Assembly (NCBI GenBank): GCA_018238545.1
Contig: JABCTC010000040.1
Coordinates: forward strand, 1 to 29,820
DNA from: Candidatus Heimdallarchaeota archaeon
GTDB taxonomy: Archaea > Asgardarchaeota > Heimdallarchaeia > Heimdallarchaeales > Heimdallarchaeaceae
Direction of reading: 5' to 3'
DNA length: 29,820 nucleotides
Every line of letters starts with the position of its first letter. The stretch's first letter is position 1. Shown piece by piece: positions 21,667-25,564 of the stretch. A program made the position numbers and the translations under genes. Under the pieces are notes generated by a model that saw only the letters and a program-made list of their open reading frames with translations, was not told where the DNA came from and searched no databases.

Positions 21667-21769
21667 CTCTTAACTCTCCAATTTAAAGAGAATTTGAAAA
21701 AGTCTTGATAAGTTGAATTATAAAAGTATTGGTTTATAATTAAACTAAAATCAATGCCCTATCGTTTCA

Positions 21770-22792
21770 TCATTCGAATAGTGTCTCGTCCTCTGCATAT
21801 CTATAAGCTATTATGAAAAGGATAAAGAAAATACATGCTGATAGTGCAACAACCAGTGTTATCATTCCATCCCATAATCTTGCCACGAAGTTTACTGCAA
21901 TGAATATGGGAACCATTAGTATTCCTCCTCCTCCACTATCTCTTGACATTTTCTTTCTCCATCGTATGAGAACTTCTAGTAAGCTTAAGCCTACAGCTAT
22001 TCCATTAATTATAAACATCGATAAATGAGATGCATCCCACCCTGCTGCAAATATGAAGATAAGCAAGAACCCTCCAAATAAAAGAGTCTTAATAACAAGT
22101 CCAATTCTGCTTTCAGTTGGTTTTGTATAGGATACTTGAGATGCTCCTTCTCGTAAGAGTAAGAAGAAGTTGGTTATTGCCATTGCACATGCTAAGCACA
22201 AAACTACCCCATAGAAGAACTCTGAATAAACTACCCAAAATTCCCAAATGGGTTGGATTACTGTAGAATATTCAACATAGAAAGCTATGGATACCATTAG
22301 GGGAATCGCAGCTAGTAAGAGACCTGGAATAACAATCAAAATAGCTGGAACATTCTTTTTAACTCCAAATGCATATAATAGTAATTTAGCAGCAAAAAAT
22401 GCTCCAAACACAGCAATAATAGGAGATCCGAAAGGTAGAATGAAGAAGAACAAACAAAATATGGCATTTACCATATAGAATAGTTTTGTGTCGATTCTAA
22501 CTTTTCCAAGAGCTCTCCACATTAGTTCATATGAATTTGCAATTCTATCTCTTTTAACAATAGAAGCTAAAGTGAAAGGCAGTGCAAAAATGAGCGGTGC
22601 AATAATTTTCAAGATGATAAAATCACCACTTCCTGAGGAGAAATAATTGCTATCTGACCAAAAAATGAAAGAATCTAAAGACATGTCTCTCATTGGGCCT
22701 AAAAACGCCCATAAGTAGAAGAAAGTTGGAAAAATAAAGATTTGAAGTAAGACAATGAGTCTATTGACCATCATTCCTCTCATATTTACCAT
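21770..22792 (-). CDS. Multi-pass membrane protein, unknown function
   Basis: About 9-10 hydrophobic segments; no motif recognised. Confidence 0.75.
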   Translation of the reverse strand: MVNMRGMMVNRLIVLLQIFIFPTFFYLWAFLGPMRDMSLDSFIFWSDSNYFSSGSGDFIILKIIAPLIFALPFTLASIVKRDRIANSYELMWRALGKVRIDTKLFYMVNAIFCLFFFILPFGSPIIAVFGAFFAAKLLLYAFGVKKNVPAILIVIPGLLLAAIPLMVSIAFYVEYSTVIQPIWEFWVVYSEFFYGVVLCLACAMAITNFFLLLREGASQVSYTKPTESRIGLVIKTLLFGGFLLIFIFAAGWDASHLSMFIINGIAVGLSLLEVLIRWRKKMSRDSGGGGILMVPIFIAVNFVARLWDGMITLVVALSACIFFILFIIAYRYAEDETLFE

Positions 22793-22847
22793 TTATTAAC
22801 ACCTTGGAAAAAAATAGTAATGGAAATAAAAAAACATTTCCTTTTAG

Positions 22848-23003
22848 ATTCCCAAACGGATCCCAAGCTCGGGTAGCCAATCGGGTTGATTTTTATTCAC
22901 CTTCTAACTTGACGAAGAGCCACAGAGGCATCGCTGCCTCTTTGTTGTGGACCCTTTCCGCCATAGTCTCAGGTGTAGGGTTCCCCTTTTTGACTAAGGG
23001 GTT
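22848..23003 (-). ncRNA. Candidate structured RNA (GNRA-capped helix, possible pseudoknot)
   Basis: GC-rich island with consecutive helices CCCCTT/AAGGGG, ACCCT/AGGGT, CCAC..AGAGGCA-GCGA-TGCCTCT-GTGG, CTTC/GAAG and CCCGA/TTGGG. GNRA loop and G.U pairs favour the minus strand. Confidence 0.55.
22986..22998. repeat. 13-bp direct repeat copy 1 (CTTTTTGACTAAG)
   Basis: Identical to 24017-24029. Confidence 0.85.
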
Positions 23004-23867
23004 CTAAGATTTTGTGGGTTCTTTAATCCCCATTACTTTTTTCCATATTCCGGGGATCAGAAAGACAATGCATGCTATTGTGCTAATTACCGGTGCCATG
23101 ATAAACATTGAGAAGGCCTTCTCTTCTAATTGGAAGGCTAGGATCATGGAATAGATTGCCAAAGGAAAACCACCTACCATACTCACGATTGCCCCTGACA
23201 GACCCATAATTCTCACCCATTCTTTCTTTTTGGCAAGGAAGAGTCCAATTGTGGTAATTCCGAATAAAATGGAAGCAATAAATCCTAAGCGTTGGGTAAG
23301 AATAAACACTCCGGCAACGCCATAATCGGGAGAATATTGGACCATCCTAGTCGTCGAAGCAATTCCATTAATAAAATTCAGGATGAAAGCCATGCCGGTG
23401 AGCATTCCAAATAGCATTTTTATCCAGGATTCATTTCTCATAGACCTTAGAAGAACGAAATACATCACAAGGTTTGGGAGAAAAATCAGAAACCAGACTG
23501 GTAATACTGCCCCACCTTCCATTGTTGGAATATTGGGCCAGAAGCTAGATTTTATTGAAAAAACTACTCCAATTACAGCAGCTGTATAGCCCCATTTCTT
23601 CTTTTGCAAAAATCCAATACCAGCTAATATCCATAATATTCCTCCTAGAATACCAATATCTGCAAATAAAGGGAAGAAAATTGGTGCTGTAGTTACACAA
23701 GGGTTATCTGCTTCTGCAGCCAAGATAGCTTCGAAGAAGAGGAGTGGAAGCAAATAGTGGAGAACTATTCCCAATGTACCCATGATGAGTGAAATTATTC
23801 CCATCATCATAGTTATTCCTGTTTTACTGTCTTCGGTCATTTTTATTTCTGTATTATTTTCAGTCAT
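23004..23867 (-). CDS. Multi-pass (about 8 TM) membrane protein with internal duplication
   Basis: Two similar halves (IGFLQKKKW / IGLFLAKKKEW). ATG 23867 preferred over GTG 23888. Confidence 0.8.
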   Translation of the reverse strand: MTENNTEIKMTEDSKTGITMMMGIISLIMGTLGIVLHYLLPLLFFEAILAAEADNPCVTTAPIFFPLFADIGILGGILWILAGIGFLQKKKWGYTAAVIGVVFSIKSSFWPNIPTMEGGAVLPVWFLIFLPNLVMYFVLLRSMRNESWIKMLFGMLTGMAFILNFINGIASTTRMVQYSPDYGVAGVFILTQRLGFIASILFGITTIGLFLAKKKEWVRIMGLSGAIVSMVGGFPLAIYSMILAFQLEEKAFSMFIMAPVISTIACIVFLIPGIWKKVMGIKEPTKS

Positions 23868-24016
23868 TTTTTTACCTTCTATAATCACTAAATTTCTAAA
23901 TTATACCTGTTTGAAAAGAACAGATGCTTAAGAAGTGTTAAATTTCTGTGTCTTTAAAAATCTTGCTCAAGAAAATTATAGATCAAATTAATTGGGAACT
24001 GGGGTAGAAGATCACT

Positions 24017-24029
24017 CTTTTTGACTAAG
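24017..24029. repeat. 13-bp direct repeat copy 2 (CTTTTTGACTAAG)
   Basis: Identical to 22986-22998; lies inside the GGGAACT(23994-24000)/AGTTCCC(24028-24034) inverted repeat, overlapping its right arm by 2 bp. Confidence 0.85.
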
Positions 24030-24102
24030 TTCCCCTACAAATTTGTGGGCGTCACTGAACTAAACTTTATTAAATCTTATTTATTAATATTCAATGAGGT
24101 TT

Positions 24103-25468: not shown

Positions 25469-25564
25469 GGGCCAGTAGTCTAGTCCGGATAAGGCACCAG
25501 CCTTCGGAAGAAATGTTCTGAAGACAGCTGGGGGTCGCAGGTTCAAGTCCTGCCTGGTCCGCCA
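25469..25564 (+). tRNA. tRNA-Arg(TCG) with 18-nt canonical 37/38 intron (25508-25525), CCA encoded
   Basis: Acceptor GGGCCAG/CTGGTCC+G+CCA, anticodon stem CCAGC/GCTGG, anticodon TCG at 25504-25506, T arm GCAGG-TTCAAGT-CCTGC. Strict BHB: CTTC/GAAG helix, GGA and ACA bulges, AGAA/TTCT outer helix. Confidence 0.96.

Follow-up and report, generated by a model that had tools for sequence, protein, structure and literature searches.

The locus raises the question of what the folded, non-coding island at 22848-23003 (minus strand), between a 287-aa gene and a 340-aa gene, represents. The window, i.e., the whole stretch of 29,820 nucleotides of contig JABCTC010000040.1 of a Candidatus Heimdallarchaeota archaeon, was compared with orthologous loci in relatives; the window's genome is denoted G000, and the other G and L numbers denote these loci. 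The sequence-only reading had described a structured island starting at a stop codon, and all the motifs that it quoted were found where it had placed them. The minus strand of the island had a folding energy of −58.9 kcal/mol (z = −4.37), and none of 200 shuffled sequences folded as well, which bore out the structured character of the island on this strand. The plus strand was unremarkable (z = −0.43). The GC content was 49%, compared with 20–25% in the adjacent gaps and 34% in the genome. The folding z value of the window copy was the strongest among 11 homologues, in which the values ranged from +0.5 to −3.9.

A DNA search of 60 relatives recovered the island in two congeners and the downstream host gap alone in eight others. 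The insertion site was GTGACG^CTAAAAGG, and three allele states were observed there: empty (3), solo (2) and two direct copies (9). In the empty alleles (G010, G002 and L065), GTGACG ran directly into CTAAAAGG, and five more distant congeners had the same short gap without the insert. The solo alleles (G016 and L066) carried a 171-bp insert at the same point. In the nine copy-gene-copy alleles (G000, G021, L058-L062, L064 and L068), passenger DNA that was missing at the empty site was bracketed by two related elements. The left copy was about 50 bp long in most of these composites, about 138 bp in L059 and L060 and of full length in L068, which thus held two full copies; the L058 contig starts inside the left copy.

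The window insert spans 24049-22848 (1202 bp). Its right element copy (22852-23018, minus strand) is a non-coding sequence of 167 bp with 49% GC, running from CCCAC to TTTGG, and its homologues include the two L068 copies as well as the solo inserts (171 bp) of G016 and L066. The right 4-bp target duplication (22848-22851, minus strand), located by comparison of the junctions with the empty alleles, has decayed to GAAT (GACG in G021 and L060). The whole right insertion is 171 bp (23018-22848). Its first 15 bp still belong to the upstream gene, the start lying at 23018 and not at the stop codon. The truncated left copy (24001-24049, minus strand), about 49–58 bp long, was recognized by comparison with the other alleles and by R1 (E = 8.7e-7), a covariance model of the element that was used with BLAST in the searches for copies. 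The left target duplication GACG (24050-24053, minus strand), just after which the insertion point lies, was invariant in the carriers with a recovered left junction and in the empty alleles G010, G002 and L065. One of the earlier suggestions, a guide-type RNA, had tied the island to a flanking repeat and to mobile DNA. This link was borne out, as the repeat proved to be another copy of the element, in truncated form.

The gaps on both sides of the insert lie outside the element. The gap before the 340-aa gene (22793-22847, minus strand) is present in the empty alleles and contains an AAGGTG ribosome-binding-like motif and a purine-rich and T-rich block, which was invariant even where the 340-aa orthologue was only 65% identical. 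The block is putatively the BRE and TATA box of this gene. The GGAAAT/ATTTCC hairpin and T-runs (22841-22822 onwards), formerly counted as part of the island, are host sequence that is present in the empty alleles, and the hairpin is not invariant. The gap before the divergent 424-aa gene (24054-24093, plus strand) is also kept in the empty alleles, and its TATA-like box (24065-24074) would serve that gene. Promoter-like blocks thus occur on both sides, and the insert would lie between two promoters. The closest named relatives of the 340-aa protein were from Heimdallarchaeaceae, and its gene was in pieces in L062, which may be an assembly error. Between the 340-aa gene and the V-ATPase E gene, on the opposite strand, an IS200/IS605-type element with tnpB or a tnpB remnant was seen at L068:5100-5900 and L069:5090-6130; window positions ~21670-21770 are an empty site for it, and its end resembles a large TnpB family of G000 finishing in CATCAT. 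A tRNA at 25469-25561 (plus strand) has about 21 extra bases, probably an intron, just after CUUC in the anticodon loop and was found by Rfam and missed by ARAGORN (bacterial mode).

The passenger gene (23004-23867, minus strand) encodes a hydrophobic protein of 287 aa from ATG 23867 (294 aa from GTG 23888) without a Pfam family; it is rare in the genus, with a match in only one of the 23 other genomes. Its last four codons and TAG stop (23006-23004) are supplied by the right copy. The upstream region of the gene inside the cassette (23868-24000, minus strand) was alignable in the nine composite alleles, with a mean identity of 75%, and was absent from the solo and empty alleles. The next relatives of the passenger (50–60% identity) were named Promethearchaeota. 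One of these, with 59% identity, lay in another context without the element, and its protein ended at the residue where the element begins. No element match was found beside the distant cargo homologues. The protein family was widespread in Promethearchaeota and close to unnamed Chloroflexota clusters by language-model features (0.94), and two relatives lay near a UbiA-family gene. In the allele with both full copies, the gene (L068:2950-3787) was broken by frameshifts into three called pieces, which may be an assembly error.

The outer junctions in the best-kept alleles were GACG|CCCAC and GTGGG|GACG, and the right GACG had decayed elsewhere to GATG, GACA, GACT, GGCT or GAAT. GACG occurred on both outer sides of the insert and singly in the empty alleles, which denotes a target-site duplication. 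The inner junctions were AGAA|CCCAC (A-rich|CCCAC generally) and ATGGG|TCAT, the inner right flank being readable in L068 only, and had nothing in common with the outer GACG. A GACG confined to the outer sides is expected if both outer ends served to mobilize the whole unit and 4 bp of the target were duplicated. A cut-and-paste (DDE-type) enzyme is tentatively proposed as the best fit to this pattern. The terminal inverted repeat CCCAC/GTGGG was only 5–6 bp long, and the right end was perfect in two of the nine full copies (L060_R and L068_R). In the consensus, the left end of the element (window 23009-23018 and 24033-24049) is a DNA palindrome of 17 bp that is nearly perfect (ACAAATTTGT core); this is a possible protein-binding site and has decayed in the window's right copy.

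The fold of the element was examined in the window copy and across the homologues. Hairpin A (22983-23001, minus strand) had pair probabilities of 0.90–0.98 and was the inner part of a longer 5′ hairpin in the homologues, with 81–93% of the cells paired across the copies. The long central hairpin (22898-22975, minus strand) was part of the minimum-energy fold; its apical stem was 94% paired, and its GNRA cap (GCGA, 22934-22931) was kept in 8 of 11 copies. The terminal 3′ hairpin (22851-22885, minus strand) also belonged to the minimum-energy fold and finished at the right end of the element, with 75–92% of the cells paired; a shorter, unrelated-looking end took its place in L061 and L062. Among the helices proposed from the sequence, helix A was supported, as were two that belong to the minimum-energy fold, helix C (GCGA loop) and the CCCGA/TTGGG hairpin at the 3′ end. 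Helix B, the pairing that resembled an 11-nt GNRA receptor and the two mutually exclusive TAGTCAA pairings all had a probability of 0.00 in the nested ensemble, with pseudoknots outside the model. The receptor motif was peculiar to the window copy. A 7-bp partner of the TAGTCAA loop (G.U allowed) occurred in 3.8% of the shuffles, and 12 of 150 island 7-mers had a full 7-bp partner (G.U allowed) within the island. The 5/5 and 7/7 loop pairings were complete in the window copy only, and the other copies had 2–4/5 and 3–6/7. Neither the receptor-like halves nor the switch pairings were kept among the 11 copies.

The mean identity of the 11 copies was 74%, compared with 75% for the cargo upstream region and 62–97% for fourfold sites of the neighbouring genes. 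The two copies of a composite were about 72% alike. With the consensus taken as the ancestor, the per-site frequency of GC-to-AT changes was 2.2 times that of AT-to-GC changes. For C residues, the frequency of change was equal in stems and loops (0.195 and 0.198), and G changed somewhat less in stems. Pair-keeping C-to-T changes were counted in 17 pairs and pair-breaking G-to-A changes in 14 pairs, numbers too small to call. Covariation among the homologues, which the sequence-only reading had named as a check, did not exceed that of shuffles: for the 39-pair structure taken from the folds, 264 of 500 shuffles reached the observed score, with limited power from 11 related sequences. Pairing was observed in 85.5% of the cells and in 85.1% after shuffling. 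Deletions of about 47 bp or of the 3′ end were found in some copies and an 11-bp duplication in some, and the element length and GC content of about 50% were fairly well kept. In the lineage of the window, L058 and L064, several changes lengthened the GNRA stem. Stem-perfecting changes can also come from template switching at DNA quasi-palindromes. The structure of the element appears to be under no visible selection now, and its hairpins would have been inherited from the parent element.

The history of the alleles was explored with the trees of the two flanking genes, both of which rejected a single carrier clade (AU p = 1.3e-9 and 0.016). In the 424-aa gene tree, the sister of one empty allele was a solo allele, and a second empty allele was placed as sister of two composites, both with 100/99 support; two base-exact empty alleles were nested among the carriers. 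Since the carriers were not one clade, exact loss, repeated insertion or allele exchange occurred more than once. The flanking genes of the window and L062 were 96–97% identical, whereas their right copies were only 74% identical. L066 and the window had 43 of the last 45 bases in common but only 78% identity overall.

We consider it probable that the island is the right copy of a decaying non-autonomous mobile element (MITE-like, 167 bp plus the 4-bp duplication), and that the pair of copies formed a compound transposon. The mobile reading is carried by the insertion at an exact site, the three allele states, the GACG at the outer sides only, the divergence at a synonymous rate and the lost pieces. 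In the donor genome, the two copies would have landed on either side of the membrane-protein gene, the right one at the natural end of the gene, which this copy now supplies. A transposase working in trans would then have carried the compound transposon, consisting of copy, gene and copy, to its position between two promoters, neither of which would be disturbed. Recombination between the direct repeats would have left solo copies, and exact loss or allele exchange among close relatives would have led to empty sites and mosaic copies. A role of the right copy in 3′ processing or stabilization of the mRNA of the 287-aa gene, as a secondary use, is possible.

Further copies of the element were not found in G000 by BLAST, nhmmer or the covariance model. 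Searches of 82 genomes of the class, of 151 and 399 of the phylum and of 87 of another class yielded neither further copies nor an autonomous partner. Each of G000, G016 and G021, whose assemblies are incomplete, had one locus only. Plasmids and phages gave no match to the element. Contigs of viruses, metagenomes and genomes yielded either no match or chance matches, which were rejected by the model or fell within coding DNA; these exact-pattern scans were insensitive and do not imply absence. The contigs of four DNA runs contained only the known allele types, with no second genomic context and no circle junction. Other GC-rich ORF-free islands of G000 (C63:4006-4312, C34:5372-5716 and C109:29723-29940, the last from a 7-member family) had no similarity to the element. 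An IS607-like family of G000 (e.g., C102:49271-49420, C21:11424-11823 and C43:96165-96560) had about 27 right ends, and its members comprised a serine recombinase and TnpB-domain ORFs of 600–650 aa as well as ORF-less forms of about 390 bp. Its target was YCG|T or CTG|T, its right end was ACGTG(C/T)GT, and the loop of a hairpin, ACGCACG, was the complement of the final 7 bases, in keeping with an omega-RNA pseudoknot.

Several other identities were tried and rejected. A resemblance to RNase P RNA depended on a P4-like AAGTCCAC/GTGGCT pair in G021, which was broken in the window, and this identity was rejected because the genome has its own RNase P RNA. By inspection, neither stem I nor stem II of a hammerhead (CUGAGA...GAAA) can form. 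The element limits had no GUGYG start or AY end of a group II intron. A coding remnant was also rejected; the consensus element had stops in all six frames and no tblastx partner.

The decaying-MITE reading has several points against it: a terminal inverted repeat of just 5–6 bp that is rarely perfect; one locus per genome and no dispersal; no autonomous partner by BLAST to 399 Asgard genomes and three model searches; base-exact empty alleles nested among carriers, which are unusual for DDE elements; a length, a GC content of about 50% and a GNRA loop (8/11) that are fairly well kept; and a slight excess of pair-keeping C-to-T over pair-breaking G-to-A changes, in numbers too small to call. 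The element was not filed in a named IS family because it has marginal inverted ends, no dispersed copies and no known partner. The main rival, although unlikely, is a recombinase-type, RNA-associated relic, i.e., an RNA-only IS110/IS1111 module like MITEPpu9 or an IS607 or IS200/IS605 derivative reduced to its ends and omega-RNA. It would recombine by way of a circle at a short core inside GACGC and could leave no scar on excision, and the folded body would be an old bridge or omega RNA. The size and multi-hairpin fold suit such RNAs, and two exact empty alleles are nested among the carriers. The target and the right end have up to 5 bp in common: with C as the following base on either side, GACG extends to a possible 5-bp core, GACGC. 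RNA-only IS110 modules moving in trans exist (PMC12288879), and G000 had 36 TnpB-domain matches and the IS607-like family with ORF-less forms. However, the inner junctions had neither the core nor a common target motif. The matches of candidate bridge-RNA guide segments were at chance level; the best scores were 12, and the null means were 11.6 for the target (P = 0.54) and 11.8 for the donor (P = 0.63). No IS110 recombinase was found in the 92%-complete G000, and in these respects the guide-type RNA proposed earlier gained no support. One of 24 congeners had an IS110 gene, without an element model match nearby, and IscB had no match in G000 in a search without a positive control. No homology to any G000 TnpB end was detected, the best alignment being to an IS607-like end (p = 0.03, one of 22 tests), and no tnpB-like reading frame was seen in the element. 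A candidate nexus pseudoknot amounted to at most a 4-bp GTCC/GGAC by eye in one alignment, and no such helix was present among the candidate helices. An IS607/IS200/IS605 derivative is opposed by the GTGACG before the left copy compared with the A-rich sequence before the right copy.

All copies were found at one exact site, the three allele states were scattered over the flank trees, and the copies were mosaic (window/L062 and window/L066). These observations favour an undescribed site-specific docking or cassette-boundary module, in which a host or phage recombinase would swap repeat-gene units at one promoter-adjacent site. This reading is nevertheless improbable: one cargo gene only was ever seen at the site and its tree broadly tracked the flank trees, selection on the structure was not visible, no recombinase was found beside the site, and the mosaics require no more than ordinary homologous recombination between closely related genomes. 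Little probability is also assigned to a mobile system of Asgard archaea, so far undescribed, whose unit of recombination and docking would be the structured 170-bp repeat: single-gene cassettes would be integrated and exactly excised at one site between two promoters by a recombinase in trans, possibly guided by the repeat RNA. The lowest rank is given to a host regulatory RNA, either the riboswitch-like leader of the 340-aa gene that had been suggested or a co-opted 3′ structure that would stabilize or terminate the cargo mRNA, and this is very improbable. The strand-asymmetric folding of the window copy, the lengthened GNRA stem in the lineage of the window, L058 and L064, and the position of the right copy directly after the cargo stop codon speak for such an RNA. 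Against it, the element was absent in eight orthologous loci, lay upstream of the conserved promoter-like block and was partly deleted in L061 and L062; the receptor and switch pairings were not conserved, and covariation did not rise above shuffles. The Rfam search returned nothing relevant for the window copy and two other copies at the gathering and E-value thresholds. These results did not support the leader proposal.

With the decaying mobile element as the preferred reading, the locus is a clear small case of gene gain by Heimdall archaea, in which a membrane-protein gene was captured between repeats and both neighbouring promoters would have been spared. Empty, solo and composite alleles are all on record for this one gene-gain site, and a false riboswitch candidate is removed. 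Since exact loss or allele exchange recurred and none of the families searched matches the element, the importance would grow if its parent enzyme turned out to be a recombinase of a new type, either site-specific or guided by RNA.

The element was compared with known systems. A GNRA tetraloop is present as in Moco/Wco and other GNRA-receptor riboswitch motifs. Unlike these motifs, the element had no Rfam match and was not tied to the downstream gene, and its receptor-like halves were 2 nt apart and variable between copies. A GC-rich end region with multiple stem-loops and exact empty sites is shared with the omega-RNA ends of IS607 and IS200/IS605 (PMC10690162) and with the ORF-less derivatives of G000. 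It differed from them in the lack of a sequence or model match to G000 TnpB ends, of a common target motif before both left ends and of a convincing nexus-to-3′-end pseudoknot. IS621-type bridge RNA elements (PMC11208160) likewise have a structured non-coding sequence of about 170 nt and a short sequence common to the target and the element end, whereas matches to target- or donor-binding loops and an adjacent recombinase were not found here. MITEPpu9/ssr9 of ISPpu9 (IS110 family; PMC12288879) is also a small structured non-coding module, alone or joined to a gene-bearing segment, with a specific intergenic target. MITEPpu9 has an AG core at every module end and a known transposase (PMC12288879), whereas the inner junctions of our element were coreless, no recombinase was found and the guide matches were not above chance. 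MITEs of such a size have inverted ends of 4–30 bp, fading duplications, folded transcripts and flanked cargo, and MITEs flank class 1 integrons in Acinetobacter (PMC10969869). The present element differed from prokaryotic MITEs in its inverted ends of 5–6 bp, in being GC-rich and not AT-rich, and in its single locus per genome. Like them, it is shorter than 500 bp, has no ORF, lies in an intergenic region and has a predicted folded transcript and a short, fading target duplication. Compared with MITE-flanked compound elements, no partner transposase was found and the two copies were about 72% alike and not identical, but the arrangement of two copies around passenger DNA and the proposed recombination between the copies are common to both.
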